64,000 nucleotides of DNA, taken from the NCBI GenBank assembly GCA_036381615.1, contig DASVCL010000078.1, positions 5,860 to 69,859 of the forward strand. The letters run 5' to 3'. This document shows, piece by piece, positions 1,752-17,815 of this stretch (its first letter is position 1; every line of letters starts with the position of its first letter). Both the position numbers and the translations under genes were made by a program. This stretch comes from Alphaproteobacteria bacterium. GTDB lineage: Bacteria; Pseudomonadota; Alphaproteobacteria; CACIAM-22H2. The notes under the pieces were generated by a model. It did not search any database. It was given only the letters and a program-made list of their open reading frames with translations, and was not told where the DNA came from.

Positions 1752-2624
1752 TCAGCCGCGCAGGTCCGCCTCGGCCGACATCGCCAGGGCCCCATCGGGC
1801 CCGGCCGCCCATAGCCGCGCGGCCCGGCCGTCCGGTGTCGGCGTTCCGTTGACCGAAAACGGCGCCGTATCGAAAAGCGGGCTCACCGCCCGGAAGGCGA
1901 AGCGGTCGAGCTTGGCGGCGGGTTGTTCGCGTCCGAGCAGGTCGAGGAGCAGCGTCGCGATCAGCGGACCGTGCACCACCAGTCCGGGATAGCCCTCGAC
2001 CCTGGTGACATAGGGATGATCGTAGTGGATGCGGTGGCCGTTGAAGGTGAGCGCCGAATAGCGGAACAGCAGGACCGGGTCTGGACGGATTTCGCGGCGC
2101 CAGACGGGATCGGCAGGTGCACGCGCCGGCTTTGCCGTTTCGGCGCCTGGCACCGGCGGCTCACGATAGACGATGTCGTGCTCCTCTTCGATCGCGAGCC
2201 CGGCCGCGCCGAAAATGCGATGCCGCACCAGGACGAAGACGAGATTGCCGCTGCGGCCGCGCTTCGCTTCGACTTTCGCGACCGTCGACTCGCGCCGCGC
2301 ACTCTCGCCGATCCGCAGACCGGCGCCGAACGTGAGTCGGCCGCCGGCCCACATCCGGCGCGGCAATGGCACCGGCGGCAGGAAGCCGCCGCGCTTCGGA
2401 TGCCCGTCGGGTCCCAGTTCGCTCTGCCGTGCGGCACTGTTGAAGAACATCCAATGCCAACCCGGCGGCAGGGGATCACCGTTGCCCGGTGCGCGTGCCC
2501 AGTCCAGCGTCGCCGCCATCGCGACCGCACGGTCGGGGGCGATGACATCCTCGACGGTCTGCGTCCGTCCTTCCCAGGTCTTCAGATGGGCGATATCGGC
2601 ATCCGTAAGTGCGACGGCGGACAT
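1752..2624 (-). CDS. MaoC-family (hot-dog fold) enoyl-CoA hydratase, mesaconyl-C4-CoA / itaconyl-CoA hydratase-like
   Basis: 291-aa ORF with ...FRYSALTFNGHRIHYDHPYVTRVEGYPGLVVHGPL..., the typical double hot-dog hydratase pattern. The ATG at 2622-2624 lies 4 nt after GAGGG; the track start is a GTG at 2627. Confidence 0.75.
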   Translation of the reverse strand: MSAVALTDADIAHLKTWEGRTQTVEDVIAPDRAVAMAATLDWARAPGNGDPLPPGWHWMFFNSAARQSELGPDGHPKRGGFLPPVPLPRRMWAGGRLTFGAGLRIGESARRESTVAKVEAKRGRSGNLVFVLVRHRIFGAAGLAIEEEHDIVYREPPVPGAETAKPARAPADPVWRREIRPDPVLLFRYSALTFNGHRIHYDHPYVTRVEGYPGLVVHGPLIATLLLDLLGREQPAAKLDRFAFRAVSPLFDTAPFSVNGTPTPDGRAARLWAAGPDGALAMSAEADLRG

Positions 2625-2718
2625 CACGCCCTCGAGCCACGAAACAAGATTCGCCTCTCCCCCGCTTCACCGATGGTGAGGAAGAATAGAGTTGATGTTG
2701 ATGACGTATGCATCCGCA

Positions 2719-3873
2719 TCATGCCGATTTTACGTCGCCGACCTCCGTCGCTGGCGCGAATTCGCGCCGGATCGCGTCCGAATGCTCGCCCAAGGCCGGG
2801 ACGGGACCTAGCCGTGGCGAATCACCGACGATCTGGGCCGGCGGCGCGGGCAGCGATACCCTGCCTTGAGGGGTCTCGATCTCCATGCGGCGAAGCTGCG
2901 GGTGCTGCGAGAACTGCGCGACCGTGTTCACCCGCCCGAAGGCGATCTGTGCGGCCTTGAGCCGTACGGTCAGATCGTCCGCCGACTGCGTGCCGAACAC
3001 GGCGGCGATCCGTGCGTCGAGATCGGGCCGGTTCTTCACCCGCGTGACGTTGTCCTTGAACAGCGGATGGCTCGCAAGCGCCGCGTCGCCGAGCACGTCG
3101 GCGCAAAAGCGCTGCCACTCGCGCTCATTCTGGATCGAGATCAGGATGAGCTGCCCGTCTTTCGCCGCGTAGGCGCCATAAGGAGCGATCGAGGGATGGT
3201 TGAGGCCGACCCGCGCCGGCGCCCCGGAACCGTAGTCGTGATGCAGCAGCGGCACGGTCATCCACTCCGCCATGCCGTCGAAGAGCGAGACCTTGATCGC
3301 GCTCCCCTCGCCCGTCTTGCCGCGGCGGATCAGCGCCTCGAGCACGGCCTGGTACGCATACATGCCGGCGGCGATGTCGCACACCGACACGCCGACGCGC
3401 CCCGGCCCCTCGGGCCGGCCCGTCACCATGCACAACCCGGTCTCGGCCTGTACCAGCAGGTCGTAGGACTTCATGTCTGCGTACGGACCCATCTCGCCAT
3501 AGCCGCTGATGTCGACGGTAATCAGGCGCGGGTGGCGCCGGCGCAGCGCGTCCGACCCGAAGCCGGCGCGCGCCGCCGCCCCGGGCATCAGGTTCTGGAT
3601 GAAGACGTCGGCCTTCGCGACGATTCGCCGGAGCAATGCGTTGTCGTCCGGGTTCTTGATGTCGAGGACCAGCGACTCCTTGCCGCGGTTGAGCCAGACG
3701 AAATAGCTCGATTGCCCCTTCGCCGCCTTGTCGTAGCCGCGCGCGAAGTCGCCTTCGGGTCGCTCGATCTTGATCACGCGCGCGCCCGCATCGGCGAGCC
3801 GCGACGAGCAATAGGGGGCGGCCACCGCCTGCTCCAGCGCGACGACGAGAAGACCGTCAAGAACACCAGCCAT
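2719..3873 (-). CDS. Family III (CaiB/BaiF) acyl-CoA transferase
   Basis: MAGVLDGLLVVALEQAVAAPYCSSRLADAGARVIKIERPEGDFARGYD is a canonical family III N-terminus. The start at 3873 sits 2 nt from the upstream gene's stop at 3875. Confidence 0.88.
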   Translation of the reverse strand: MAGVLDGLLVVALEQAVAAPYCSSRLADAGARVIKIERPEGDFARGYDKAAKGQSSYFVWLNRGKESLVLDIKNPDDNALLRRIVAKADVFIQNLMPGAAARAGFGSDALRRRHPRLITVDISGYGEMGPYADMKSYDLLVQAETGLCMVTGRPEGPGRVGVSVCDIAAGMYAYQAVLEALIRRGKTGEGSAIKVSLFDGMAEWMTVPLLHHDYGSGAPARVGLNHPSIAPYGAYAAKDGQLILISIQNEREWQRFCADVLGDAALASHPLFKDNVTRVKNRPDLDARIAAVFGTQSADDLTVRLKAAQIAFGRVNTVAQFSQHPQLRRMEIETPQGRVSLPAPPAQIVGDSPRLGPVPALGEHSDAIRREFAPATEVGDVKSA

Positions 3874-3874
3874 C

Positions 3875-5032
3875 TCAGTAGGACCGCGGCAGGCCGAGCA
3901 CGTGCTCGGCAAGATAAGAGAGGATCAGATTGGTCGAAATCGGCGCGATCTGATAGAGCCGCGTCTCGCGGAACTTGCGCTCGACATCGTATTCCTCGGC
4001 GAAGCCGAAACCGCCATGCGTCTGCAGGCACATGTCGGCCGCCTGCCATGATGCGTCCGCCGCCAGCATCTTCGCCATGTTCGCCTGCGGCCCGCACGGC
4101 TTGCCGGCGTCGAACAGGGCCGCCGCCTCGCGCACCATCAGGGCGGCGGCCTCGGTCGCCGCGAAGGCGCGTGCGATCGGGAACTGCACGCCCTGGTTCT
4201 GGCCGATCGGCCGGCCGAACACCACGCGGCTCCTGGCATAGTCGCTCGCCTTGGCGATGAACCAGCGCGCATCGCCGATGCACTCGGCGGCGATCAGGAT
4301 GCGTTCCGCGTTCATGCCGTCGAGGATATAGCGGAAGCCTTTGCCCTCTTCGCCGAGCAGATGATCGGCCGGGACCTCGAGGTTGTCGAAGAACACCTCG
4401 GTCGTCGCATGATTGATCATCGTGCGGATCGGCTGGATGGACAGCCCGCGCTTCAGCCCCTCGCGCATGTCGACGACGAAGACCGAGAGGCCGTCGGTAC
4501 GCCGCGCCACCTTGTCGCGCGGGGTCGTCCGCGCGAGCAGCAGCATCAGATCGGAATGCTCGGCGCGGCTCGTCCACACCTTCTGGCCGTTGATGACATA
4601 CGTGTCGCCCCGGCGCACGGCAGTGGTGCGAATCGCCGTGGTGTCCGTACCGGCCGTCGGCTCGGTCACGCCGAACGCCTGGAGCCGCAACTCGCCCGTG
4701 GCGATCTTCGGCAGCCAGCGCGATTTCTGTTCGGCGCTGCCGTGCTTCAGGATCGTGCCCATCGTGTACATCTGGGCATGGCACGCGGCGCCGTTGCCGC
4801 CGCTCTTGTGGATCTCCTCGAGGATCGCGGCTGCGGCGGCGATGCCGAGGCCGCTGCCGCCATACTCCTCGGGGATGAGGACGGCGAGCATGCCCGCCTC
4901 GGTCAGCGCCTTCACGAACTCGGTCGGATACCGCCGCTCGCGATCGAGTTCGCGCCAGTAGCTGCCCGGAAAACGCGCGCACAGTGCGCGCACCGAATTG
5001 CGGATGTCTTCTAAACCGTCGGCCGCAGTCAT
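3875..5032 (-). CDS. Acyl-CoA dehydrogenase (385 aa)
   Basis: ACAD fold: EYGGSGLG, FGVTEPTAGTD, YVINGQKVWTS. ATG verified at 5030-5032 (MTAADGLEDIRNSV). Glu sits at the IVD-type base position (MNAERIL), not at the MCAD position (YQIAPIS). Confidence 0.88.
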   Translation of the reverse strand: MTAADGLEDIRNSVRALCARFPGSYWRELDRERRYPTEFVKALTEAGMLAVLIPEEYGGSGLGIAAAAAILEEIHKSGGNGAACHAQMYTMGTILKHGSAEQKSRWLPKIATGELRLQAFGVTEPTAGTDTTAIRTTAVRRGDTYVINGQKVWTSRAEHSDLMLLLARTTPRDKVARRTDGLSVFVVDMREGLKRGLSIQPIRTMINHATTEVFFDNLEVPADHLLGEEGKGFRYILDGMNAERILIAAECIGDARWFIAKASDYARSRVVFGRPIGQNQGVQFPIARAFAATEAAALMVREAAALFDAGKPCGPQANMAKMLAADASWQAADMCLQTHGGFGFAEEYDVERKFRETRLYQIAPISTNLILSYLAEHVLGLPRSY

Positions 5033-5108
5033 TCCGCCTTCTCTCCCCCGACGCGCAACATATAAAGGATAGCCGATCGCGGCAAATGCGGCGTGTGCGG
5101 CCGGATGG

Positions 5109-6110
5109 TCAGCCGGCCGCGCGTCGCTGGAGATCGGCCAGGAGGTCCGCCGGCACCTCGATTCCGTCGGTCTCCGCCTTTGCCCTGAGCCGCAGGCGGC
5201 GGTCGCCGGGAAGGCGCGTCCCCGGCTGCGCCAGGATGGCGTCCGCCAGCACGCCGACGCGCGCGGCGAAACCGGGGCCGGCGAAGCGCGCCGGGTCGAT
5301 GACAAGGAAGAACTGACCGACGCGCGGCGGCGGCCCCTTCGCGTCGAAAAACGAACTCGCCTCGTAGCCGAACCGGGCGCCGGTCAGCGCGGCCGCCAGG
5401 ATCTCGACCATCAGGACCAGCGCCGCGCCCTTGGCGTCGCCCATCGGCAGCATGGTGCCGCCGAGTGCCGCCTTGGCGTCGCGCGTCGGCCGTCCCTCGG
5501 CATCGAGCGCCCAGCCCTCGGGGATCGGCTCACCCTTCTGCGCCGCAACCATGATCTTGCCGCGCGCAACCTTGCTGAGGCTGAGGTCGATCACGAGCGG
5601 CGGGGCGCCTTCGAGCGGACAGGCGAAAGCGATCGGGTTCGTGCCGAACAGCCCGCGCACGCCGCCCCAGGGCGCGATCGCCGCCGGCGAATTGCCGAAG
5701 GCAAGCGCGACGAGACCACGCGCGGCGAGCGGCTCGACGTGAAAGCCGGCCGCGCCGAAATGATGCGAGTTGGTGATGCCGACCCCGACGACGCCGGCGC
5801 GGCCGACGAGCTTCGCGGCCCGCGCCAGCCCCTGCGCGATCGCCGGATACGCGAACCCGTCGCGCGCATCGACCATCACCGCCCCGGGCGCGGTCTCGGT
5901 AACGAGGGGAACGGCCTTGCCGTCCACCTTTCCCGCCCGCGCCTGATCCGCATAGGCCGGCAGACGCGACAGGCCATGGCTCGCGAGACCGTCGGCCTCG
6001 GCCGCCACCAGCGCCTCCGCGACGGCGTCGGCATTCCGCTGCGAGACTCCGGCTGCGACCAGAACCCGAGCGGCGAGATCGTGCGCGTCGGCGAGCGTGA
6101 GTTTCGTCAT
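5109..6110 (-). CDS. Ldh_2 family malate/L-lactate/(R)-sulfolactate-type NAD(P)H dehydrogenase (ComC family)
   Basis: 333 aa with GLASHGLSRLPAY, ITNSHHFGAAG and GTNPIAFA motifs of the Ldh_2 family. Its ATG overlaps the upstream gene's stop (ATGA at 6107-6110). Confidence 0.85.
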   Translation of the reverse strand: MTKLTLADAHDLAARVLVAAGVSQRNADAVAEALVAAEADGLASHGLSRLPAYADQARAGKVDGKAVPLVTETAPGAVMVDARDGFAYPAIAQGLARAAKLVGRAGVVGVGITNSHHFGAAGFHVEPLAARGLVALAFGNSPAAIAPWGGVRGLFGTNPIAFACPLEGAPPLVIDLSLSKVARGKIMVAAQKGEPIPEGWALDAEGRPTRDAKAALGGTMLPMGDAKGAALVLMVEILAAALTGARFGYEASSFFDAKGPPPRVGQFFLVIDPARFAGPGFAARVGVLADAILAQPGTRLPGDRRLRLRAKAETDGIEVPADLLADLQRRAAG

Positions 6111-7039
6111 GCCAGGGCCTTCAGCGCGCGGCGCACGCTGACGATGGTCGCCGACGAGACGCGGAAATTGGACTCTTGCGTCACGCCGGCGATGTGCGGC
6201 GTCAGCAACAGATTGGGCACGCCCTCGAGGATCGAACCGGCCGGCAGCGGCTCTCTGGCGTACACGTCGAGGGCGGCGCCGCCGATCCTGCCCGCCTTCA
6301 ACGCCGCGACGAGCGCCGCCTCGTCGATGATGCCGCCGCGCGCCGAGTTGATCAGGAACGCATTGGGCCGCATGCGGGCGAGCGCCTTGGCGTCGATCAG
6401 GTTGTGCGTCTCGGGCATGTAGGGCACGTGGATGCTGATGATGTCCGAGCTCGAGAGCAGCGTATCGAGGTCGACGCGCGCGACGCCATACTGCGCCCAG
6501 GCCGGATCGTCCGCCGTGACGAACGGGTCGTAGGCCGCAAGCTCGAGCTCGAGCGCACGGGCGCGCTGCGCCACCGCGCGCGCGATGGCACCGAAACCGA
6601 CGAGGCCCAGCCGCTTGCCGGCAACCTCATGGAACATCAGGTCGTTGCGCGGCCATTTGCCGGCCAGCACGTCGGCATTGGCCTGCCAGACGTTGCGCAA
6701 GCCCACCAGCATCGCCGCGATCACGTATTCGGCGACCGACACCGTGTTCGCGCCGGTTGCCGGGAACACCTGGATGCCGCGCGCGGCGCAGGTGTTCATG
6801 TCGATGTTGTCGAGGCCGACGCCGAGCCGGCCGATGATCTTCAGGCGCCTGCACCCGTCGAGCACGGCGCCGCGTACCTGCGTGCGGTTGCGGACGATGA
6901 GGGCCGGCGCGTCGGCGGCGAGATGGACGATCTCGTCGGGCCGATCAACCAGCGTGGGATCGTAGTGAACCTTGAAGTCGCGCTTCAGGTCATCGACCGC
7001 CCATTGGTCGATGAACTCCGTGATCACGATGTCGTACAT
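6107..7039 (-). CDS. D-isomer-specific 2-hydroxyacid dehydrogenase (PGDH/GyaR-like)
   Basis: 310 aa. NAD-binding motif LGLVGFGAIARAVA and catalytic region NSARGGIIDEAAL...TPHIAG. ATG at 7037-7039. Confidence 0.88.
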   Translation of the reverse strand: MYDIVITEFIDQWAVDDLKRDFKVHYDPTLVDRPDEIVHLAADAPALIVRNRTQVRGAVLDGCRRLKIIGRLGVGLDNIDMNTCAARGIQVFPATGANTVSVAEYVIAAMLVGLRNVWQANADVLAGKWPRNDLMFHEVAGKRLGLVGFGAIARAVAQRARALELELAAYDPFVTADDPAWAQYGVARVDLDTLLSSSDIISIHVPYMPETHNLIDAKALARMRPNAFLINSARGGIIDEAALVAALKAGRIGGAALDVYAREPLPAGSILEGVPNLLLTPHIAGVTQESNFRVSSATIVSVRRALKALA

Positions 7040-7042
7040 GGA

Positions 7043-8764
7043 TTACTCGGCAGCGGTTCGTATGAGTGTTTCGCCGGGCCGGACGCGGGTGAACGCGACC
7101 GGCTCGGTCGTGACGACGATGCGGCCCTGGTCGAGCCGCACGCAAGTATAGCGCGAATTCTCCAGGTTGCTGGTCTCGGGAAAATCGGCCCGGAAATGCG
7201 CGCCGCGCGAGTCCTCGCGGGTAGCCGCCGCGGCGACGATGGCCCGGCTCACCAGCACGAGGTTCTTGAGATTGAGCCAGTCGTGCCAGGTCAGGTTGAA
7301 GGCGCGGTTGCGGCCATCGACACCGATCCGGTCGAGGTCCGCATCGAGGGTTTCGAGGCTCTCGGCGGCGCGCGCCAGGCTTGCCGCGTCGCGGACGATC
7401 CCGGCGTCCTCCCACATCAGCGCGTACAGCCGTTCGCGCACCGCCTCGATGTCGCCGGGCGGCCGCGTCAAGGGCGCGCTTGCCCGCGTTATCGCTGCCG
7501 TGATCGCCGCCTCGTCTGGCGCGCGCCACTCGCCTGCCGACGGCGTCCATGCCGCCATGGCGTCACCGGCGATGCCGCCGAACACGGTCGAATTGGCGAC
7601 GCCGTTGCCGCCCAGCCGGTTCGCGCCGTGCACGCCGCCCGTATCCTCGCCGGCCGCGAACAGCCCGGTGAGTTCGGTCGTGCAGTCGGTCCTGAACTTG
7701 ACGCCGCCCATCATGTAGTGCGCCGTCGGTACGACCTCGACGCGGCCGCCGGCGAGATCGAAGCCGCAATCGGCGCAGCGTTCGACCATGCCCTTGAACT
7801 GCTTGCGAACCTTGTCGGGTCCGAGATGACTCATCTGGAGGTACACGCCGCCCAGCGGCGTGGCGCCGCCCTTGCGGATCACGTCGAAGATGGCGCGGCT
7901 GACGATGTCGCGCGTCGCCCGCTCGCCGCGCGGGTCGTAGCGCTCCATGAAACGCTCGCCGTTCGCATCCAGCAGGTAGCCGCCGGCGCCGCGCAGGCCC
8001 TCCTCCAGCACCGTCCCGGTCATGCGCGTATCCGGCCCCGCCAGCAGGCCGGTCGGGTGGAACTGCACCATCTCCATGTCGCGGAGCGTGAGGCCGGCCC
8101 GCAGCGCCATGGCCATGCCGTCGCACGACTTGTCGCCAGACGGCGTGTGATACCGGTACATGGTCGGCCCGCCGCCGGTCGCGAGCAGCACGGCGCGCGC
8201 TTGGACGAACACGAATTCGCCCAACCGCATGTCGATGAACAGCACGCCGGCGATGGCGTCGCCTTGCGCCGTCTTGATCAGCTCGATCGCCCGATGCTCT
8301 TCCAGCCTGTCGATGCGGCGGGCCCATACCTGTTCGGCCAGCCGGTTGATGATCTCGATGCCGGTCAGGTCGCCCTTGTGGACGGTGCGGTCGAAGGTCT
8401 GGCCGGCGAAGGCCTTCTGGTGGATGGTGCCGTCGGGATTGCGGTCGAAGAAGCAGCCGAGTTCGTTCTCCAGCTCGCGGATGCGTACCGGGGCGACCGT
8501 GACCAGCATCCAGGCGAGGTCCTGGTCGTTGAGCCACTTGCCGCCCTCGATCGTGTCCATGAAATGGCGTTCGACCGAATCCCCCGGCGCCAGTGCAACG
8601 TTGTAGCCGCCCTGGACCATGCGCGTGCAGCCGCATTTGCCCAGGAGCCCCTTGACCGCGACCGTGATCTTGAGCTGCGGCGCGGCCTTGTGCGCATGCA
8701 GCGCCGCGAACAGTCCCGCCCCGCCGGCGCCCAGGATCAGAATGTCGGTCTGCAGTCGCTTCAT
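7043..8764 (-). CDS. Succinate dehydrogenase/fumarate reductase-type FAD flavoprotein (SdhA/FrdA/NadB superfamily), atypical
   Basis: DILILGAGGAGL dinucleotide fold, QFHPTG, ERATRD, PTAHYMMGG, HGANRLGGN. The covalent-FAD His position reads Cys (GKCGCTRMVQGG). Start is ambiguous: ATG at 8764 (MKRLQTD) preferred, ATG at 8779 or GTG at 8806 possible. Confidence 0.85.
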   Translation of the reverse strand: MKRLQTDILILGAGGAGLFAALHAHKAAPQLKITVAVKGLLGKCGCTRMVQGGYNVALAPGDSVERHFMDTIEGGKWLNDQDLAWMLVTVAPVRIRELENELGCFFDRNPDGTIHQKAFAGQTFDRTVHKGDLTGIEIINRLAEQVWARRIDRLEEHRAIELIKTAQGDAIAGVLFIDMRLGEFVFVQARAVLLATGGGPTMYRYHTPSGDKSCDGMAMALRAGLTLRDMEMVQFHPTGLLAGPDTRMTGTVLEEGLRGAGGYLLDANGERFMERYDPRGERATRDIVSRAIFDVIRKGGATPLGGVYLQMSHLGPDKVRKQFKGMVERCADCGFDLAGGRVEVVPTAHYMMGGVKFRTDCTTELTGLFAAGEDTGGVHGANRLGGNGVANSTVFGGIAGDAMAAWTPSAGEWRAPDEAAITAAITRASAPLTRPPGDIEAVRERLYALMWEDAGIVRDAASLARAAESLETLDADLDRIGVDGRNRAFNLTWHDWLNLKNLVLVSRAIVAAAATREDSRGAHFRADFPETSNLENSRYTCVRLDQGRIVVTTEPVAFTRVRPGETLIRTAAE

Positions 8765-8929
8765 CGCGGTTTGAATCATCAGGGGCAGCGAGAATGAACG
8801 GGCCACGGCGTCATGAAGGCACGAAAGAAGGTGAATGCCGCATGACGCGCGCCGGAATTCATCCTCGTGCCTTCGGGTCTTCGTGGGTCAAGACATCTTC
8901 CTTCCTGCCCTGGCGGTTTCCTCATTTCC

Positions 8930-11326: not shown

Positions 11327-12131
11327 GGCCCGCCGCCCTCTCCTGCTCGATGCGCTCCGCGAACAGCATGTTGTGGATGCGCTGGTTCAGGGCCATGAAC
11401 TCGGGCCCGCCCTGGTGGCCATGGCCGAACTCATGCGCGTTAAGTTCAGCCTTGACGCGGCCGGGATGCGGGCTGAGGACGAGGATGCGCGAGCCGACGA
11501 TGATCGCCTCCTCGATCGAGTGCGTCACGAACAGCACCGTAAACCGCGTTTCCTCCCACAGCTGGATCAGCTCCTCCTGCATCTTGCGGCGGGTCAACGC
11601 GTCGAGGGCCGCGAACGGCTCGTCCATCAGCAGGATGTCCGGCTCCATCGCCATCGCGCGGGCGATCGCCACGCGCTGCTTCATGCCGCCGGACAGCATG
11701 TGCGGATGGACGTCGCGGAACTTGGTCAGGTTGACCTTGTCGATGTATTTGAGCGCGCGATCCTCCGCTTCGCCGCGGCGGTACTTGCCGCTGACCAGCA
11801 TCGGAAACATGACGTTCTGCAGCACGGTCTTCCAGGGCAGAAGCTGGTCGAATTCCTGGAACACCATCATGCGATCCGGCCCGGGGCGGTCGACGGGCCG
11901 CCCCTGCAGCCGGATGCTGCCTTCGACCGGCCGCATGAAGCCGGCCACGCCTTTGAGCAGCGTCGACTTGCCGCAACCGGAAGGTCCAAGCAGTACGAAC
12001 CGGTCGGCCGGGTAGACGCTGAAGCTCACCCGATATGTCGCCGTCACAAGATGGTCGCGCGTCTTGTACTGGAGCGTGACGCCGTCGACCTCGAGCAGCG
12101 GCGCGATGTTCGACAGCGAAGCGCCGGGCAT
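11319..12131 (-). CDS. ABC transporter ATP-binding protein, nitrate/sulfonate/taurine (SsuB/TauB-like) type
   Basis: Walker A GPSGCGKST, signature LSGGMKQRVAIARA, Walker B ILLMDEPF. Confidence 0.9.
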   Translation of the reverse strand: MPGASLSNIAPLLEVDGVTLQYKTRDHLVTATYRVSFSVYPADRFVLLGPSGCGKSTLLKGVAGFMRPVEGSIRLQGRPVDRPGPDRMMVFQEFDQLLPWKTVLQNVMFPMLVSGKYRRGEAEDRALKYIDKVNLTKFRDVHPHMLSGGMKQRVAIARAMAMEPDILLMDEPFAALDALTRRKMQEELIQLWEETRFTVLFVTHSIEEAIIVGSRILVLSPHPGRVKAELNAHEFGHGHQGGPEFMALNQRIHNMLFAERIEQERAAGHG

Positions 12132-12141
12132 GACGTGCGCC

Positions 12142-13158
12142 TCAGCTTCCCTGTTTGTCGTGGATTTCGGGGAAGAACATCTCCTTCCACGACCCGGGCA
12201 TGTTCCGGATCGAGCCGACCTTGTGCATGAACTCGGCGTACTTCATCACGTTCTGCGGGGTCGTGGTGAAGACGTTGTCCGGATCGTTCAGGATCTTCTC
12301 GACGAACTCCTGCGACAGCTTGGAGTTCTCGGCCTTGATCCACAGCGCGGCCGCCTCCTTCTTGTTGGCGTTGATCCACTGGGTCGCCTCCTCGACCGCC
12401 GCCAGGAAGGCCTTGTAGGTCTTCGGGTTCTTCTCGCGGAATGCCGTGGTCGTCCAGATCGTATTGAAGGTGGCCGGCCCGCCGAGCACCTCGAACGAGC
12501 TGAGCACGCGGCGCACGCGCTTGTCCTCCAGCTCCATGTACTGGAACGGCGCCGAGGTGAAGTGGCCGGTGATCTCGCTCTGTCCCGACATCATCGCCGC
12601 CATTCCGTCGGGATGCGACATCGACACCGTCAGCCGGTCGAGCGCGTCATACTTCCCCAAGGCCTTCTCGACCGCCATCTGCAGCGTCACCGCCTGGATC
12701 GACACCTTCACCGCCGGCAGCGCGATCTTGTCCTTGTCCGTGAAGTCCTTCACCGTCTTCACGTTCGGATTGATCGTGTTGAGATACAGTGGCATCGAGT
12801 TGATCGACGACACGCCCTTGACGTCCAGGTTGCCCTTCGTCTTGGCCCAGATCGTGACGAGAGGGCCGACGCCGCCCGAGGGAAAGTCGAGGCTGCCCGA
12901 GATCAGCGCCTCGTTCATGGCGGCGCCGGAGCTGAACTTCGTCCACTCGGTCTTGATGTCGCCGAGGCCGGCGGCCTTGGCATGCTTTTCGACGAGCTTC
13001 TTCTCCTCCATTACCGTGAGCGGCAGGTAGGAGATTCCGAACTGCTTGGCGATACGCACCGTGTCCGTCTCGGCACGCGCGGGCGCACCGAGCAGCACGG
13101 CAATGGCACCTGCAGAAATCGCCAGACATATCGACCGATTGAATTCTCGTATCGTCAT
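12142..13158 (-). CDS. Periplasmic substrate-binding protein, NMT1/SsuA/TauA-like
   Basis: Signal peptide MTIREFNRSICLAISAGAIAVLLGAPARA. Strong SD (GAGGAGGAACACGGAA before the ATG). Paired with NitT/TauT permease and ATPase genes. Confidence 0.8.
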   Translation of the reverse strand: MTIREFNRSICLAISAGAIAVLLGAPARAETDTVRIAKQFGISYLPLTVMEEKKLVEKHAKAAGLGDIKTEWTKFSSGAAMNEALISGSLDFPSGGVGPLVTIWAKTKGNLDVKGVSSINSMPLYLNTINPNVKTVKDFTDKDKIALPAVKVSIQAVTLQMAVEKALGKYDALDRLTVSMSHPDGMAAMMSGQSEITGHFTSAPFQYMELEDKRVRRVLSSFEVLGGPATFNTIWTTTAFREKNPKTYKAFLAAVEEATQWINANKKEAAALWIKAENSKLSQEFVEKILNDPDNVFTTTPQNVMKYAEFMHKVGSIRNMPGSWKEMFFPEIHDKQGS

Positions 13159-13226
13159 TTCCGTGTTCCTCCTCTAGTTCGAATTGCGCCGGTCTTGGCC
13201 GGCTGCTTTTTTTATTTCGCAAAGTA

Positions 13227-13955
13227 TCACACGAGCAGACCGATCCCGGAACCCAGAAGCAGCAGCAGGACGATGCGCCTGAACTGTGCATCATCGACGC
13301 GGGCATAGAGCTTGAGACCGAGCCAGGTGCCGATCACGAGCGCGGGCAGACAGATCAGGAACTGCGCCACCGTCCGCATCCCGATCGTCCCGAACCCGCC
13401 CAGCCAGACCAGGGCCAGGAGCTGCATCACGAAGATATAGGGCTGGTACACGCCGCGCTGGATCTGCTTCGGCCAGCCGCGCAGTCCGCACCAGATCGTG
13501 GGGATCGCACCCGAGAGGCCGGCGAGCCCGCCCATGACGCCGCCGATGAAGCCGATCGCGCCGTCGACGGCGCGCCCGCCGGCGTCGATCGCCGCCGCCA
13601 CGGGGCGCAGGAACATGAAGACGCTGTAGGCGACCAGGAAAGCGCCGACGGCGAGCCGGAACACGGGCACGTCGATGTGCTGCAGCAGAAACGCGCCGAG
13701 CGGGATGCCGACGATTCCGCCGATCAGGAACGGATGCAGTCGCAGCCAGTCGATGCTGCCCTTGAGCGCAAGCAGCGTAATGGTCTGCGCCGTGAGCGAG
13801 CCGGCAAGCACCAGCGGCACTGCTTCGGCAGGAGCCAGCACGTAGAGATAGATTCCGGTCGCGATCAGCGCGAAGGCGAATCCGGCGAGGCCCGAGGCGA
13901 ACGCCGCGACGAACGTCGCGAGCGAGAGCAGCAGATCGCCCGTCACCGTGCTCAT
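13227..13955 (-). CDS. TauE/SafE (DUF81) family anion (sulfite/organosulfonate) exporter
   Basis: 242 aa with about 7-8 TM segments and the typical Gly-rich repeats (GFIGGVMGGLAGLSG). Its ATG overlaps the stop of the upstream membrane-anchor gene (ATGA at 13952-13955). Confidence 0.8.
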   Translation of the reverse strand: MSTVTGDLLLSLATFVAAFASGLAGFAFALIATGIYLYVLAPAEAVPLVLAGSLTAQTITLLALKGSIDWLRLHPFLIGGIVGIPLGAFLLQHIDVPVFRLAVGAFLVAYSVFMFLRPVAAAIDAGGRAVDGAIGFIGGVMGGLAGLSGAIPTIWCGLRGWPKQIQRGVYQPYIFVMQLLALVWLGGFGTIGMRTVAQFLICLPALVIGTWLGLKLYARVDDAQFRRIVLLLLLGSGIGLLV

Positions 13956-14320
13956 GGACCGGTCACGTTCAGCAGGAACAGCAGGCCGACGGCGAGACTG
14001 AACCCGGCCGTGGCCGCCACCGCCGTGCGTTGCCAGTCGCGCCAGCCGGCGAATTCGATCGCGAGCAGCCGCAACCCGCCGGCGAGATGGGCCGTGAGCA
14101 GCATGACGAGGCCGGTCTCGGCGAGCTTCAGGAGCGGATGCTCCGTCCAGCGCAGGAAACCGTCGAGCGCGGCCTCGCCCCGGATCGCCTGGCCGAGGGC
14201 CCAGAAGTGGAACGGCAGGAACAGCGCCAGCAGCAGTCCCGACAGGCGGTGCACGACGAAGGCCGCGTAGTTGGGATGCGCACGGGCCCGCCAGGCGAGA
14301 TGCGCGTGACCCGCGCTCAT
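13952..14320 (-). CDS. Succinate dehydrogenase/fumarate reductase-type membrane anchor (cytochrome b-like) subunit
   Basis: 122 aa, 3 TM, conserved His in TM segments (FVVHRLSGLLLALFLPFHFW, LLTAHLAGG). Start re-picked at the ATG at 14318-14320. Sits in an sdhB-anchor-anchor arrangement. Confidence 0.65.
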   Translation of the reverse strand: MSAGHAHLAWRARAHPNYAAFVVHRLSGLLLALFLPFHFWALGQAIRGEAALDGFLRWTEHPLLKLAETGLVMLLTAHLAGGLRLLAIEFAGWRDWQRTAVAATAGFSLAVGLLFLLNVTGP

Positions 14321-14333
14321 GCCGTGATCCCGC

Positions 14334-14681
14334 TCATGCGAACAGCCCCCCGATCGCGCGCCAACCGAAGGCGACGAGGAATAGCGCGAACGCGGCCGTG
14401 GCCACGTCGAGCGAGCGGTCACGCCACGGCGTCATTTCGCGCAGGATCGTGCGCAGGCCCAGCGGTGCGTGCACCGCGACGGCAAGCACGAACACGCCAT
14501 AGAAGAGCAGCCAGCCGACCGAGCCTCGCGTACGCGCCAGGATCTCCGCGGCCGAAAGCCCACCGTGCACAGCATAGACGATCACTGCCAGATGGATTGC
14601 GACGCAGACGGCGAGCACCGCCGCCGAGGCGCGCTGCGCGGTCCACAGCAGAGCCTCGATGCGCCGCGACACCCTCGACAT
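14334..14681 (-). CDS. Second small membrane anchor subunit of the SDH/FRD-like complex
   Basis: 115 aa, 3 TM, His residues (AIHLAVIVYAVH, AVAVHAPLG). ATG at 14679-14681, 3 nt after the Fe-S subunit stop. Confidence 0.65.
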   Translation of the reverse strand: MSRVSRRIEALLWTAQRASAAVLAVCVAIHLAVIVYAVHGGLSAAEILARTRGSVGWLLFYGVFVLAVAVHAPLGLRTILREMTPWRDRSLDVATAAFALFLVAFGWRAIGGLFA

Positions 14682-14684
14682 CGC

Positions 14685-15404
14685 TCAGATCTTCCCTTTG
14701 AGGGCCGCGAGTGCCGTCGCGCGCTTGAGGCCCGCGATCGAGCCGGTCGGATCGAGATGCTTGGGACAGAACTCGCGGCAGCTCTGCTGCGTGTGACAGG
14801 CATGGCAGCCGGCATCGCCCGCGACCGCCGCCAGGCGTTCGTCGCGCGCGCCGTCGCGCACGTCATTGACGAGCGTCCAGGCCCGGTTGAGCGCGGCGGG
14901 ACCGAGATAATCCGGGTTCCACGACACGACGTCGCAAGCGGCATAACAAACGCCGCAGCCGATGCACTCGATCGCCGCATCGGCGGCCTGGCGCTCGCGG
15001 CTGTCGGGCGGCACCACGGCGAAGTCCGTCGCCGCACCGGGGGCCGACACGAAGCGGCCCTGGGCGCGCGCCCACTTGTCGAAGAAGACGGTCATGTCGA
15101 CCGCGAGATCTTTGATGACCGGCAGGTTGCGGAGCGGGGCGATCGTGACGCCGTCGCCGTCCGCCACCTTCGCCACATGCGTGCGGCATGTCCATCGTGG
15201 TACGCCGTTCACGCTCATCGCGCACGACCCGCACATGCCGACGCGGCAGGCGTAGCGGTACGACAGCGTCGGGTCGATCCGGCGCTGGATCCAGGTGACG
15301 ACGTCCAGGACCGTCTGGCTCTCGCGGCGCGGCACGGTATACGTCTCGAACCGTCCCCTCTCGGTCCCGCGCCAGATCCGTACCGTGAGCGTCGCGTCGC
15401 TCAA
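14685..15404 (-). CDS. Succinate dehydrogenase/fumarate reductase iron-sulfur subunit (SdhB/FrdB-like)
   Basis: 2Fe-2S motif CRVGMCGSCAM...C, 4Fe-4S motif CIGCGVCYAAC, 3Fe-4S motif CHACHTQQSCREFCP. TTG start at 15402-15404, preceded by GGAGGAGG. Confidence 0.88.
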   Translation of the reverse strand: MSDATLTVRIWRGTERGRFETYTVPRRESQTVLDVVTWIQRRIDPTLSYRYACRVGMCGSCAMSVNGVPRWTCRTHVAKVADGDGVTIAPLRNLPVIKDLAVDMTVFFDKWARAQGRFVSAPGAATDFAVVPPDSRERQAADAAIECIGCGVCYAACDVVSWNPDYLGPAALNRAWTLVNDVRDGARDERLAAVAGDAGCHACHTQQSCREFCPKHLDPTGSIAGLKRATALAALKGKI

Positions 15405-15485
15405 TATGCCTCCTCCCGATGGCTGAAGGCCGCTTGCCCGCGGCTCTTGTCGGTCTCCCTCACTCCTGGACAGAGGGTTGCGGTC

Positions 15486-16688
15486 TCACGCGCTTTGATA
15501 GAGCTTGGTCAGCACGAACTCGCGATGCCCCAGTGCTTCGGCCGCGGTGAGACGGCCGTTGCAGGTCCGGATCATGATGTCGATCAGGCGGTCACCTGCC
15601 TCGTCGAGCGTCATCTCGCGCCGCAGAATGCCCGAGACATCGAGGTCGATGTGCTCGCTCATTTCCCGCGCCGTCCGCGGGTTCGCGGTCAGCTTGATGA
15701 CCGGCTCGATTGGGTTGCCGATCACGTTGCCCTGGCCGGTCGGGAACAGATGGACGACGAAGCCGCCCGCCGCCTGGAGCGTCACGCATTCCGCGGCAGC
15801 CGACGACGTGTCCATGAAGTAGAGCCCGGGGCCCTTCGACGGCTCCTCGGCCGGCCTCAGCACGTCGATGAACTTCGTATTGCGGCCGATCTTCTGGAAG
15901 TTGCCGAACGCCTTTTCCTCGATCGTCGTCAGGCCACCGGCGATGTTGCCCTTGGTCGGCTGGGACTCCGACAGGTCGTTCGTCTTGTAGCGGTTGATCA
16001 TGTCGTTGTAGGCGCGCCACGTCGCCAGGAACTTCTCCGCGACTTCCTTGGTCGCCGCGCGCTGCGCGCAGATCACCTCGGCGCCGGTGAGCTCCGACGT
16101 CTCGCCGAAGCACGTCGTCGCACCCAGCGGATCGATCTTGTCGATCAGGTTGCCGACGGTCGGGTTCGAGGCGAGACCGGACGTCGTGTCGGACTCGCCG
16201 CACTTGCACGACACCCACAGCTCGTTGATGTAGCACTCCTCGCGCTGCAGCTCCGAGGCCCAGTGCAGGAATTCCTTCGCCTTGCGCGACGCCTTGGCGA
16301 TCGTGTTGATGTCGCCGTTGCCTTCGATCGAGAAGCCCTCGACCGGCTTGCCGGTCCTGGCGATGCCATCGACCACGCGCTTGGTCCAGCCGGGCTCGAT
16401 GCCGATGACCACGACCGCCGCGACGTTCGGGTTGGCGCCGGTGCCGATCAGGGTGCGGAAATGGAGCTCGAGGTCCTCGCCGAACTGCAGACGCCCATAG
16501 GCGTGCGGCAGCGCCATCGTGCCCTTGATGTTGTTGGCGACCGCCTCGCACGCGGCGTTCGACAGGTCGTCGAGCGGCAGGATGATGACATGGTTGCGGA
16601 TGCCGACGCGCCCGTTCGGGCGCCGGTAGCCCTGGAACCGAAGATCGTGTCCGTTCTTCTTCGCTGGCGTCCTGGCCATGGCTACCAC
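15486..16688 (-). CDS. UxaA-family dehydratase/lyase large subunit, (2R)-sulfolactate sulfo-lyase SuyB-like
   Basis: About 400 aa, UxaA C-terminal-type sequence ([19 protein letters not shown]..., [30 protein letters not shown]). GTG at 16688 or ATG at 16679; overlaps or abuts the small-subunit stop at 16682. Confidence 0.8.
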
Positions 16689-16966
16689 CTCTTGGTCTTC
16701 ACGTTGTGGACGTGCACGTGGCGGCCCTTGCCGATGTCGGCGATGGCGCGCCCGATGTCATTGCCGTACTTGATGATCGTGTCTCCGTTCTTGATGTCCT
16801 GGAGCGCGATCTTGTGGCCGAGCGGCACGGCATCGAGCGCATCGACGTAGATCGTCTTGTCGCCCTCCATCACCCAGCCTTCGAGCCTCTGGCCCGGCTT
16901 CACGTCCTCGACGACCACGACGCCGACCGTGTCCTTCGCATCGTGAACGATGAAATGGGTCGTCAT
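16682..16966 (-). CDS. SAF-domain small subunit of the UxaA-family enzyme, SuyA-like (94 aa)
   Basis: [37 protein letters not shown]...[17 protein letters not shown] at 16964-16966, preceded by GGGGGAGGA. The track ORF 16682..17794 is over-extended. Confidence 0.8.
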
Positions 16967-17047
16967 TCCTCCCCCTTGCCTTTTGCGCGGGATTTTAAAG
17001 GTTGAGGCTAGGCCGCCCGCCGCGGACGAGTCAATGCGGAACTTATG

Positions 17048-17059
17048 TCTTATATAAGA
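17048..17059. promoter_or_regulatory. Perfect 12-bp AT-rich palindrome TCTTATATAAGA, candidate operator of the adjacent HutC-type GntR regulator
   Basis: Read directly in the 123-bp divergent region between the SuyA-like gene and the gntR gene, about 30 bp upstream of the gntR ATG. Context: atGTCTTATATAAGAtag. Confidence 0.45.
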
Positions 17060-17089
17060 TAGTGTTAGCTGTGCTAGGATGCGCGGGCA

Positions 17090-17815
17090 ATGAACGCGAC
17101 GCTCGGCTTCCGCCCGCTCTATGCCCAGGTCAAGGACCTGCTCGTGCAGCGCCTCGTCTCCGGCGTATGGAAGCCGGGCGAGGCGCTGCCGTCGGAGTTC
17201 AGCCTCGCGGCCGAGCTCAAGGTCAGCCAGGGCACGGTCCGCAAGGCACTCGACGATCTGGCCGCGCAGAACCTCGTCGTACGCCAGCAGGGTAAGGGAA
17301 CCTTCGTCGCCCGGCACACGCCCCAGCGCGCCCTCTTCCACTTCTTTCATCTCGTGGGCGACGACGGCGAGCGGGCGCTCCCGTCGCATCGCGTCCTTGC
17401 GTTGCGCAACGCGCGGGCGACGAAGGCGCAGGCCGAACGCCTGAAGCTTGCCGCGGGTGCCCCCGTGATCGCGCTCAAGCGCATCCGTCTGCTCGGCGGC
17501 CGTCCGGCGATCTTCGAGCGCATCGTCCTGCCGGGCGCCCTCTTCCCCGGTCTCGTCGAACGCCTGGCCGACCGGCTGCCGAACGAGGTGTACCGTTTCT
17601 ATGAAGAGAAATACGGCGTCACCGTCGCCCGCGCGGTCGAGCGCCTCAAGGCCGTCGCGGCCACGCCCGAGGAGGCGAAGGCGCTCGGCCTTGAAGCCGG
17701 CGCGCCGCTGCTCGAGATCGACCGTACCGCCTACGGCCTCGACGGACGTCCGGTCGAGCTGCGCCTGAGCCGCTGCGACACGGCGCGGCATCATTACCTG
17801 AGCGAGATTACGTAG
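17090..17815 (+). CDS. GntR-family transcriptional regulator, HutC subfamily (UTRA effector domain)
   Basis: wHTH sequence LPSEFSLAAELKVSQGTVRKALDDLAAQNLVVRQQGKGTFV plus a UTRA-like C-terminal half. Divergent from the large catabolic cluster. Confidence 0.88.
   Translation: MNATLGFRPLYAQVKDLLVQRLVSGVWKPGEALPSEFSLAAELKVSQGTVRKALDDLAAQNLVVRQQGKGTFVARHTPQRALFHFFHLVGDDGERALPSHRVLALRNARATKAQAERLKLAAGAPVIALKRIRLLGGRPAIFERIVLPGALFPGLVERLADRLPNEVYRFYEEKYGVTVARAVERLKAVAATPEEAKALGLEAGAPLLEIDRTAYGLDGRPVELRLSRCDTARHHYLSEIT

Follow-up and report, generated by a model that had tools for sequence, protein, structure and literature searches.

Systems of the SuyR-SuyAB-SlcC-ComC type for sulfolactate, as found in Paracoccus pantotrophus, Chromohalobacter salexigens and Paracoccus wurundjeri (its gene cluster 2), combine a regulator, a sulfo-lyase, two dehydrogenases and an associated exporter. 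Here we analyse a gene cluster from an alphaproteobacterium, found in a stretch of 64,000 nucleotides (the window; GenBank assembly GCA_036381615.1, contig DASVCL010000078.1, positions 5,860 to 69,859, G+C approximately 66%), which has the same regulator, sulfo-lyase and dehydrogenases, together with an associated exporter. It differs from the described systems in that these sulfolactate genes, called module B in what follows, are split by ten inserted genes; in that its importer is an ATP-binding cassette (ABC) system of the NitT/TauT type and not SlcHFG, a tripartite tricarboxylate transporter; and in that its exporter is TauE and not SuyZ. The ten genes lying between suyB and slcC, called module A, have no assigned function in the searched literature. 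Our preferred reading, which we hold with slightly better than even confidence, is that the cluster is a composite operon for C3 organosulfonates, in which module A feeds 3-sulfopropanoate, via sulfoacrylate and sulfolactate, into module B. The sulfolactate half is already known; what is new is the proposed feeder module, in which the enzymes are paralogues of class-I fumarase and of complex II.

3-Sulfopropanoate arises from dihydroxypropanesulfonate and sulfoquinovose in fermenting bacteria, and from homotaurine. According to Chen et al. (2024; PMC11489063) its bacterial degradation had not previously been reported, and a 2026 review describes the mechanism as still unclear. For Roseovarius nubinhibens ISM, a Konstanz thesis by J. 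Mayer, as cited in PMC11489063, gives a route from homotaurine via 3-sulfopropanoate and sulfoacrylate to sulfolactate. These are the same intermediates as those proposed here, and the searched literature, in which the thesis is represented by that citation, names no enzymes or genes for them. An earlier, sequence-only reading of the window had suggested an undescribed organosulfonate pathway, and had stated that the described routes for sulfolactate, dihydroxypropanesulfonate and cysteate use no enzymes resembling succinate dehydrogenase (SDH) or fumarase. A full-text literature search yielded no paper in which SDH-like or fumarase-like enzymes are given a role in sulfonate metabolism, so within the searched literature the second statement is borne out. 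The first holds in so far as no genes have been assigned there, but the route is not wholly unanticipated, given the thesis as cited.

A related observation comes from P. wurundjeri grown on sulfofucose, which is degraded via sulfolactate: 9 proteins of the 11-gene cluster 3 (MDP0926751-MDP0926761) were induced (PMC12421959). The cluster contains TauE and is annotated as fumarate and tartrate metabolism, and its authors tentatively link it to the Krebs cycle (PMC12421959). As far as the paper describes it, the cluster agrees with module A in size and in where TauE lies, an apparent match.

The enzymes of module A can also be compared with the type C complex II, class-I fumarase and malate dehydrogenase from the tricarboxylic acid (TCA) cycle. 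The window shares the four-subunit architecture with its Fe-S motifs and haem His, the catalytic Arg and His residues, the two-subunit Fe-S hydro-lyase and, as the third step, an Ldh_2 'malate/sulfolactate' dehydrogenase. In contrast to the TCA enzymes, the window flavoprotein has Cys46, Glu254 and His129-Lys130, and misses the SdhA, FrdA and NadB cutoffs; and module A is plasmid-borne and accessory in several strains, and is associated with sulfonate genes and never with sucABCD or other TCA genes. A further comparison is with coenzyme M synthesis in Xanthobacter autotrophicus, where sulfoacrylate, an established metabolite, is made and consumed by enzymes of the fumarase/aspartase superfamily (XcbC and XcbD). 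Here too a nucleophile is added across the sulfoacrylate double bond, and a gene of the argininosuccinate lyase family occupies the hydratase slot in a haloarchaeal form of module A. Coenzyme M synthesis differs in that it is biosynthetic, starts from phosphosulfolactate, and proceeds without a flavoprotein or an Fe-S hydratase.

Organisation of the gene cluster

A listing of open reading frames (ORFs), together with start-codon analysis, gives 17 intact genes on the minus strand, the first starting at 16966 and the last ending at 1752; a further gene, at 17090-17815 on the plus strand, is divergent from them. The regulator, its putative operator and the genes of modules A and B are as follows; the last three minus-strand genes are listed further below.

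17090..17815, plus strand: GntR regulator, HutC-type, SuyR-like (Pfam GntR and UTRA)
17048..17059, no strand: 12-bp perfect palindrome TCTTATATAAGA (read directly)
16682..16966, minus strand: SuyA, small SAF-domain subunit (Pfam SAF, 94 aa)
15486..16679, minus strand: SuyB, large subunit (Pfam GD_AH_second and GD_AH_C, 397 aa)
14685..15404, minus strand: SdhB-like iron-sulfur subunit (Fer2_3 and Fer4; TTG start, GGAGG ribosome-binding site)
14334..14681, minus strand: SdhD-like membrane anchor (Pfam Sdh_cyt)
13952..14320, minus strand: SdhC-like cytochrome b subunit (Pfam Sdh_cyt)
13227..13955, minus strand: TauE/SafE-family anion exporter (Pfam TauE)
12142..13158, minus strand: periplasmic binding protein of the NitT/TauT-type ABC importer (NMT1_2/NMT1)
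11319..12131, minus strand: ABC importer ATPase (ABC_tran)
10442..11326, minus strand: ABC importer permease (BPD_transp_1)
9543..10445, minus strand: class-I (Fe-S) fumarase-like hydro-lyase alpha, proposed sulfoacrylate hydratase (Pfam Fumerase)
8930..9541, minus strand: class-I fumarase-like hydro-lyase beta (Pfam Fumerase_C)
7043..8764, minus strand: SdhA/FrdA-like flavoprotein, proposed 3-sulfopropanoate dehydrogenase (FAD_binding_2 and Succ_DH_flav_C)
6107..7039, minus strand: D-2-hydroxyacid dehydrogenase, SlcC-like (2-Hacid_dh and 2-Hacid_dh_C)
5109..6110, minus strand: Ldh_2 dehydrogenase, ComC-like (Pfam Ldh_2)

The genes are closely packed. Stop and start codons overlap by 4 nt at 6107-6110, 10442-10445 and 13952-13955, there is a 1-nt gap at the 9541/9543 junction and an 8-nt overlap at 11319-11326, and the remaining gaps are of 1-165 nt. 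The flavoprotein gene has possible alternative starts at 8779 or 8806. On re-reading the ORFs, the junction coordinates given in the sequence-only reading were all correct; every protein family that it named is confirmed by Pfam, and the divergent HutC-type GntR gene and the perfect palindrome are present at the 5' end as described. It had treated the whole as a unit of eighteen genes. Their common direction stands, as 17 minus-strand genes plus the divergent GntR gene, but they are not a single conserved unit, because the last three genes are not conserved. The conserved unit is of 15 genes including the regulator, and ends at the Ldh_2 gene (5109) rather than at 1752. The order of the anchor genes has also been corrected, the SdhD-like gene (14334-14681) preceding the SdhC-like gene (13952-14320).

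There is almost no equivalog-level placement by NCBIfam: the only models passed are TIGR00384, a broad SdhB/FrdB subfamily, and NF004885, for the fumarase-like alpha subunit. Because almost nothing reaches this level, the cluster has no functional assignment under current annotation rules. Comparison of loci shows that the gene set recurs across many genomes, and the arrangement is thus not due to chance. Promoter and terminator scans of the window performed no better than shuffled controls.

The sulfolactate module

Judged from its sequences, module B (GntR, SuyA, SuyB, 2-Hacid_dh and Ldh_2) is the known sulfolactate system. SuyA (94 aa, SAF domain) is encoded 2 nt upstream of SuyB (397 aa, GD_AH domains), the split architecture expected of SuyAB. 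SuyB is 71.5% identical to SuyB of Cupriavidus pinatubonensis and 72.3% identical to that of Paracoccus versutus, and SuyA is 48-54% identical to the small subunits of the suy clusters in these two species. When SuyB was compared by tblastn with 72,556 plasmids, the matches fell into two classes, with 13 records at 64-74% identity in suy contexts, the rest at 41% or less, and none between. The large subunit therefore falls in the SuyB clade, the other UxaA/GarD proteins being at most 41% identical, and an altronate or galactarate dehydratase, the contrary identity considered in the sequence-only reading, is ruled out by the same two classes. The identification of the SAF and UxaA pair as SuyAB-like, and of the whole as an organosulfonate cluster rather than one for sulfur-free sugar acids or dicarboxylates, is thus upheld.

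The contexts of the matching genes agree with this. The C. pinatubonensis suyB gene directly follows hpsN, hpsO, a gene for a major facilitator superfamily transporter and, at the hpsP position, an alcohol dehydrogenase gene annotated as galactitol-1-phosphate 5-dehydrogenase. We take this to be the hpsNOP-suyAB cluster for dihydroxypropanesulfonate, in which SuyAB acts. On plasmid pTAV3 of P. versutus, suyB lies in a unit GntR-suyA-suyB-'sulfate exporter', adjoined by hpsNOP-like genes and a sulfite oxidase gene. In public databases, JGI gives homologues of the window SuyB at 83-91% identity the name '(2R)-sulfolactate sulfo-lyase subunit beta'. Among solved structures, GarD (6U7L, 135 bits) is the sole relative. 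Four Cys residues are conserved in UxaA and GarD but not in SuyB (PMC6336799); in an approximate comparison after that paper, some of the Cys are common to GarD and the window SuyB and some are not. Matches in Sulfitobacter annotated as 'altronate dehydratase' were rejected as authentic SuyB, being single-chain proteins of approximately 30% identity in pentonate-type contexts. The window SuyAB is predicted to cleave (R)-sulfolactate to pyruvate and sulfite.

The two dehydrogenases share their Pfam families with the biochemically validated C. salexigens enzymes SlcC and ComC (2-Hacid_dh, PF00389 and PF02826; Ldh_2, PF02615). Their genes are adjacent, overlap by 4 nt, and lie in the same operon as suyAB, and the order GntR/UTRA-SuyA-SuyB-SlcC-ComC is that of P. 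wurundjeri cluster 2. The Ldh_2 protein scores 348.6 bits with Pfam; its best NCBIfam model is L-sulfolactate dehydrogenase (NF040650), at 203.5 bits, below the cutoff of 500. The earlier suggestion that the two enzymes form a sulfolactate pair is supported by these families and by this gene order. The five genes of module B also occur by themselves, together with an ABC importer of the same type, on a plasmid of Sinorhizobium mexicanum.

It is worth adding that SuyAB is 84-85% identical between the window and Acidobacteriota, and similarly close to proteins in metagenome-assembled genomes (MAGs) of Rokubacteria, NC10 and Chloroflexota. In the Acidobacteriota, the neighbouring genes encode GntR-FCD, Gfo/Idh/MocA, creatininase-family, cupin, 2-Hacid_dh, SDF symporter and FAA-hydrolase proteins. 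Three Acidobacteriota contigs with SuyAB (genes at 9714-11167 and flanks, locus coordinates) contain neither SDH-like nor fumarase-like genes.

Conservation of module A and its linkage to module B

Module A has the order SdhB-, SdhD- and SdhC-like, TauE, binding protein, ATPase, permease, FumA-, FumB- and SdhA-like. A near-complete version of the window arrangement is kept in two alphaproteobacterial MAGs. Scanning 185,579 species-representative genomes with the flavoprotein gave at least 598 relatives, of which the best 80 (70-78% identity) are mostly from Burkholderiales, with some from Alphaproteobacteria. Linkage was counted in the 43 fully flanked loci from these 80, by mapping the window proteins onto the loci and counting genes within a distance of 10 kb:

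FumA-like: 42/43 loci
FumB-like: 41/43 loci
Ldh_2: 34/43 loci
SuyB: 29/43 loci
TauE (either type): 21/43 loci
At least one of SuyB, Ldh_2 and TauE: 39/43 loci

Within module A, the order SdhB-SdhD-SdhC-[transport]-FumA-FumB-SdhA is essentially fixed among the mapped loci. How modules A and B are placed and oriented relative to each other varies widely between genomes. Such a pattern would be expected from functional coupling, and not from the shared descent of one arrangement. The co-occurrence of SDH-like, fumarase-like and SuyAB-like genes in other genomes, to which the sequence-only reading had pointed as a comparison worth making, is borne out, 29 of the 43 loci having SuyB and 39 having SuyB, Ldh_2 or TauE.

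Individual loci, some of them from cultured strains, illustrate the range of arrangements. In Methylobacterium radiotolerans JCM 2831 the whole set is on plasmid pMRAD01; Cupriavidus necator N-1 is another carrier of the cluster. On pTAV3 of P. versutus, module A lies with TauE, comC, slcC, a tripartite tricarboxylate transporter and suyR-suyAB-suyZ within approximately 20 kb, and a YeiH (SuyZ-like) exporter gene follows FumB in the module A operon; P. pantotrophus has a protein 99% identical to the P. versutus flavoprotein homologue. Plasmid pRHL1 of Rhodococcus jostii RHA1 carries SdhB-SdhA-FumA-FumB, with suyAB, slcC and comC some 20 kb away, and a haloarchaeal plasmid carries SdhB, an SdhA-like gene (50% identity), TauE and a split UxaA pair. 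A marine Magnetovibrio locus has no suyAB, and has a pta gene and a thiamine pyrophosphate (TPP) enzyme of the length of Xsc 8 kb away. That module A is plasmid-borne in several strains argues that it is not a housekeeping succinate dehydrogenase. Roseovarius nubinhibens, whose sulfolactate degradation runs through SlcD, Xsc and CuyA and not through SuyAB, was absent among the 120 matches listed, all of which were at least 83% identical to the Paracoccus homologue.

The genes that recur around module A point to organosulfur metabolism. A binding protein of a tripartite tricarboxylate transporter replaces the ABC system in 31 loci, and a second type of TauE is found in 17. TauD-family dioxygenases are present in 7 loci, sulfatases in at least 8, and sulfite-oxidase-like molybdoenzymes in 4. 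Neighbouring ORFs of approximately 490 aa that had been considered as possible producers of 3-sulfopropanoate proved to be sulfatase, amidase, RecQ and similar proteins.

Other features were noted around these loci. Sulfatase (PF00884) genes lie inside the module, between the SdhC-like and FumA-like genes, in several Burkholderiales. A TPP enzyme of approximately 550 aa is found in 23 of the 80 module loci, often immediately behind the SdhA-like gene or in the interval from suyB to sdhB (one example is at 11357-12982, locus coordinates, in the related locus L090); it is not present in the window. It resembles acetolactate synthase, oxalyl-CoA decarboxylase and 2-hydroxyacyl-CoA lyase, falls below all NCBIfam cutoffs, and might act on sulfopyruvate. 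Finally, pTAV3 has annotated sdhD and sdhC genes at 646216-646973, approximately 9 kb from the module, with no adjacent sdhA or sdhB; the pair may be a remnant of a canonical sdh operon.

The complex-II-like enzyme

All four subunits of a complex II are encoded, namely the flavoprotein, the Fe-S protein and two membrane anchors. The flavoprotein belongs to a discrete family, whose members are 50-78% identical to the window protein, against at most 38% for canonical SdhA, FrdA and NadB. It scores below all NCBIfam cutoffs (TfrA 518.8 against 718; TIGR01812 441.8 against 567.3; nadB 360.8 against 452.75).

The flavoprotein was aligned with Escherichia coli FrdA and Mycobacterium smegmatis SdhA. 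The His that forms the 8-alpha-N3-histidyl link to the flavin adenine dinucleotide (FAD) cofactor (FrdA His44, SdhA His45) is replaced by Cys46, in the motif GK[CS]GCTRMVQGG, and the Thr of the catalytic loop, which binds the distal carboxylate (FrdA Thr244, SdhA Thr254), is replaced by Glu254, in the motif [LI]EEG[LI]RGAG. Both substitutions are invariant in 83 of 83 proteobacterial sequences, and are also present in the Rhodococcus and haloarchaeal homologues. An invariant His129-Lys130 stands in place of the canonical Ala-Ala before the D-x-T-G motif. H236, R285, H349 and R383 (equivalent to FrdA His232, Arg287, His355 and Arg390) are invariant, and Gln51 is of the SdhA type, FrdA having Glu. 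By these residues the flavoprotein is not a succinate dehydrogenase. The retention of R285, H349 and R383, which make up the carboxylate half-site and the proton shuttle, and of the distal His, H236, together with the remodelled distal residue E254, suits a succinate analogue that is altered at one end.

The FAD may either be 8-alpha-S-cysteinylated, by a thioether to Cys46, or be bound non-covalently. We know of no 8-alpha-S-cysteinyl FAD in the complex II family. In variants of FrdA His44, non-covalent FAD supports fumarate reduction and not succinate oxidation.

Urocanate reductase UrdA is a precedent for the retuning of an enzyme of the fumarate reductase family, in its case to a non-dicarboxylate substrate. 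It keeps the Arg/His/Arg set that binds the carboxylate, and the distal residues of its clamp helix are replaced, including by an acidic residue. It differs in being soluble, in having a flavin mononucleotide domain and in working only as a reductase, and its distal His has become Tyr, whereas the window protein keeps H236.

Of the remaining subunits, the SdhB-like protein scores 193 bits with TIGR00384 (cutoff 88). The SdhC-like protein just misses TIGR02970 (51.7 bits, cutoff 52.3), and keeps an HRLSG motif and a His that aligns with E. coli SdhC His84. The best NCBIfam model for the SdhD-like protein, TIGR02968, is below cutoff, and its sequence VAVHAPLG holds a candidate haem-ligand His. 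The anchors thus resemble the succinate:quinone reductase type, with the haem His residues kept.

The hydratase and the transport proteins

The alpha subunit of the fumarase-like hydro-lyase scores 297.6 bits with Pfam Fumerase and 307 bits with NF004885 (cutoff 276), and its translation contains three Cys motifs, LLCQD, VCPP and IQCHS. The beta subunit misses its curated cutoffs (TtdB NF006082, 146.9 against 264; TIGR00723, 143.6 against 145.15) and has a six-residue insertion, PHHPAG. Aligned with the Methanocaldococcus jannaschii protein 7XKY_B and the Leishmania-type enzyme 6MSO, it keeps the RD, GTTTSARM and GKGG motifs. The contacts to the distal carboxylate in Leishmania major fumarate hydratase are presumably Arg421, Thr467, Thr468, Arg471 and Lys491. 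Because the fumarate-contact residues are all kept, the hydratase sequence is equally compatible with a carboxylate and a sulfonate ligand. The context of the pair, always with SDH-like genes and usually with suyAB, comC-like or TauE genes, speaks against a housekeeping role.

In some versions of module A the hydratase slot is filled differently. A Magnetovibrio MAG has the large and small subunits of aconitase X (6091-7769, locus coordinates) and no FumAB, Phreatobacter has both FumAB and aconitase X in the module (12645-14317, locus coordinates), and on the haloarchaeal plasmid the slot holds the gene of the argininosuccinate lyase family (11902-13404, locus coordinates). That three unrelated lyase families fill the same slot indicates a fumarate-like enoate intermediate after the flavoprotein step.

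The TauE protein scores 102.7 bits with Pfam PF01925 (cutoff 32.6) over residues 12-239, and is predicted to export sulfite or a sulfonate. The binding protein of the importer scores 91 bits with SsuA_fam (cutoff 163.5), and its nearest solved relatives, both weak, are SsuA and TauA. The best NCBIfam match of the ATPase is the taurine ABC ATPase TauB (215.6 bits, cutoff 357), and those of the permease are SaoP, TauC and SsuC, all below cutoff (TauC 81.6 against 342). The importer is by its sequence a member of the NitT/TauT family, an assignment that carries no specificity.

The regulator and its putative operator

The GntR protein is 41-48% identical to the GntR proteins flanking suyAB in P. 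versutus and 47% identical to that of S. mexicanum, and its PF00392 and PF07702 architecture is that of the P. wurundjeri cluster 2 regulator. The palindrome TCTTATATAAGA sits in the 123-nt spacer between the GntR gene and suyA. Across 1.6 Mb of related loci it occurs without mismatch 9 times, where 0.1 occurrences would be expected. Eight of the sites are in suyA-upstream spacers, namely those of the window, S. mexicanum, a MAG of Stellaceae, Methylobacterium Leaf104, Chelatococcus and M. radiotolerans; the remaining one is a further site in S. mexicanum, at 2.7 kb upstream of suyA. The palindrome is thus likely to be the operator of the GntR regulator, and its recurrence upstream of suyA identifies the regulator as SuyR-type.

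Imperfect copies are also found. There is one with a single mismatch in the suyR-suyA spacer of P. versutus, and another in Chelatococcus, 359 nt upstream of the SdhB-like gene, which is transcribed separately there. In M. radiotolerans a palindromic variant with two mismatches is found 113 nt upstream of the SDH-like operon, and the slcC/comC promoter region of P. versutus contains further variants. This pattern suggests a common regulon for modules A and B, also in genomes that transcribe them separately.

Downstream and flanking genes

The last three of the 17 minus-strand genes, counted but left without comment in the sequence-only reading, are as follows (CoA, coenzyme A):

3875..5032, minus strand: acyl-CoA dehydrogenase (Acyl-CoA_dh_N/M/1)
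2719..3873, minus strand: family III CoA-transferase (CoA_transf_3)
1752..2624, minus strand: MaoC-N/FAS1_DH_region hydratase-like protein (PF13452)

The gap between the Ldh_2 and acyl-CoA dehydrogenase genes is of 76 nt, with no recognisable terminator. In NCBIfam, the acyl-CoA dehydrogenase comes closest to the models for acryloyl-CoA reductase, glutaryl-CoA dehydrogenase and 3-sulfinopropanoyl-CoA desulfinase, without reaching any of their cutoffs. The CoA-transferase scores 358.6 bits with CoA_transf_3, and has only sporadic matches of 31-34% identity in related loci. The MaoC-N protein scores 24 bits with PF13452 and has no NCBIfam match; its homologues of approximately 60% identity are solitary, in unrelated contexts. 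Of the 43 loci, only 1 has an acyl-CoA dehydrogenase homologue, and none has the CoA-transferase or the MaoC-N gene. As they are scarcely present in the related loci, the three are lineage-specific neighbours. A CoA-dependent branch of the pathway is not supported, the trio not being conserved with the cluster and the MaoC-N homologues being solitary elsewhere; a CoA-dependent side route through it is still conceivable.

The flank upstream of the GntR gene is unrelated, and consists of short-chain dehydrogenases and a branched-chain-amino-acid-type ABC system. Beside such genes, at 25168-27577, lie a GntR-FCD regulator and a soluble 571-aa FAD_binding_2 protein, the second, unrelated flavoprotein of the fumarate reductase family in the window. 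Downstream of the cluster is an ORF (1027-1812, minus strand) with a C-terminal DnaJ domain, which overlaps the 3' end of the MaoC-N gene by approximately 60 nt; its true start is probably further downstream.

The proposed pathway and alternative explanations

On the basis of these observations we propose the following route. The importer would take up 3-sulfopropanoate, the sulfonate isostere of succinate. The complex II paralogue would desaturate it to 3-sulfoacrylate, passing the electrons to quinone, and the fumarase paralogue would hydrate the sulfoacrylate to sulfolactate, which with fumarase stereochemistry would be the L form, (2R)-3-sulfolactate. SuyAB would split the sulfolactate, and TauE would export the resulting sulfite. 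SlcC and ComC would interconvert (S)- and (R)-sulfolactate via sulfopyruvate, and would serve for imported (S)-sulfolactate or sulfopyruvate. We infer the substrate, the direction and the stereochemistry, 3-sulfopropanoate being the simplest substrate that module A could convert into the substrate of module B. Under the Cahn-Ingold-Prelog rules (2R)-sulfolactate corresponds, in its L configuration, to (S)-malate, so that hydration of the fumarase type would give the substrate of SuyAB directly; ComC has been named both L-sulfolactate and R-sulfolactate dehydrogenase, which agrees with this. The sequence-only reading had seen here a desulfonation route that mimics the TCA cycle. Its coupling of TCA-like enzymes to SuyAB stands, in view of the 39 of 43 loci, while 3-sulfopropanoate would be its substrate only on the reasoning just given. 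We see an even chance that the flavoprotein is a 3-sulfopropanoate:quinone oxidoreductase with a remodelled distal site which, together with an Fe-S sulfoacrylate hydratase, forms a succinate-fumarate-malate-like shunt feeding SuyAB.

Several observations weigh against this proposal. At the distal substrate site of the flavoprotein, a Thr-to-Glu change would not be expected for a sulfonate. With the FAD-linking His lost, oxidation may be disfavoured unless Cys46 links the FAD covalently. The hydratase beta subunit keeps all the distal-carboxylate residues, so that a dicarboxylate substrate would be compatible with it. In 14 of the 43 fully flanked loci SuyB is not within 10 kb, and no conserved aminotransferase or aldehyde dehydrogenase that would make 3-sulfopropanoate was found beside the module loci. 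Lastly, the Paracoccus cluster, as far as it is described, was induced on sulfofucose without 3-sulfopropanoate being supplied (PMC12421959).

Some of these points would be explained if the module ran in reverse, from sulfolactate through sulfoacrylate to 3-sulfopropanoate with quinol as the reductant, as an electron sink comparable to fumarate respiration, and with TauE exporting the 3-sulfopropanoate. The FAD-linking His is likewise absent from the unidirectional soluble fumarate reductases, the Paracoccus induction took place when sulfolactate was made internally, and in E. gilvus the export of 3-sulfopropanoate has been proposed for a homologue of TauE. We nevertheless consider this reversal quite unlikely, since the hosts mostly belong to aerobic genera (Burkholderiales, Methylobacterium and Paracoccus), the anchors are of the SdhC/SdhD type with haem His, residue 51 is the Gln of SdhA and not the Glu of FrdA, an importer lies inside the module, and the invariant Cys46, being at the exact position of the His, may itself link the FAD. 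A different sulfonated analogue, which we regard as unlikely, would account for the dicarboxylate-binding residues of the hydratase: either sulfosuccinate, passing via sulfofumarate and sulfomalate to sulfopyruvate, or L-cysteate, oxidised in the manner of L-aspartate oxidase. The Ldh_2 protein, of the malate/sulfolactate dehydrogenase family, is listed as the most conserved partner (34 of 43 loci), the flavoprotein scores nearly equally on the NadB and SdhA models, and Glu254 could bind an amino group. Sulfosuccinate, however, is mainly a fragment of man-made surfactants, an origin that is hard to reconcile with a module found in at least 598 genomes; its third anionic group fits poorly with the Thr-to-Glu change; and a cysteate oxidase would have no use for the hydratase, which 41-42 of the 43 loci have embedded in the module.

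It is also possible in principle that the module desulfonates by itself, water being added at C3 of sulfoacrylate to give 3-hydroxy-3-sulfopropanoate, which would break down spontaneously to malonate semialdehyde and sulfite, and that SuyAB and the dehydrogenases handle external sulfolactate only. Michael addition at the sulfonate-bearing carbon, through a carboxylate-stabilised carbanion, should be the chemically easier hydration, exporter genes lie inside or directly beside the module, and the loci with no SuyB nearby would then be understandable. Against this, no malonate-semialdehyde dehydrogenase or decarboxylase recurs near the module loci, the linkage to suyAB and comC-like genes is strong, and the thesis on R. 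nubinhibens, as cited, names sulfolactate as an intermediate; we judge it very unlikely. The least compatible of the rivals, and in our view highly improbable, is the alternative raised in the sequence-only reading, a sulfur-free dicarboxylate pathway (for methylsuccinate, mesaconate, citramalate or tartrate) that merely adjoins the sulfolactate genes. The alpha subunit does score above the cutoff of the 'fumarate hydratase' model of NCBIfam, the residues that bind fumarate are kept in the beta subunit, databases use the names 'fumarate reductase' and 'tartrate dehydratase', and the trio for a CoA-transferase, an acyl-CoA dehydrogenase and a hydratase follows downstream in the window. However, module A is inserted inside the sulfolactate module in the window, several lineages have genes for sulfite exporters embedded in it, the linkage survives rearrangement in Proteobacteria, Rhodococcus and haloarchaea, an operator is common to both modules, the CoA trio is not conserved with the module, and the flavoprotein is without two residues characteristic of true succinate and fumarate enzymes.

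Implications

If the composite operon for 3-sulfopropanoate is correct, module A, which ranges from Proteobacteria to Actinobacteria and haloarchaea, would fill in the genes so far missing for what becomes of 3-sulfopropanoate and homotaurine under aerobic conditions. It would also give a function to proteins now annotated as 'fumarate reductase', 'L-aspartate oxidase' and 'tartrate dehydratase', and account for the cluster induced in the Paracoccus proteomics. The replacement of His by Cys at the site of flavin attachment is relevant to the enzymology of complex II. As cultured, sequenced strains carry the cluster, the idea is directly testable. On the same condition, module A would add a new substrate class to two textbook enzyme families, and provide surveys of the sulfur cycle with an extra marker of sulfonate mineralisation.

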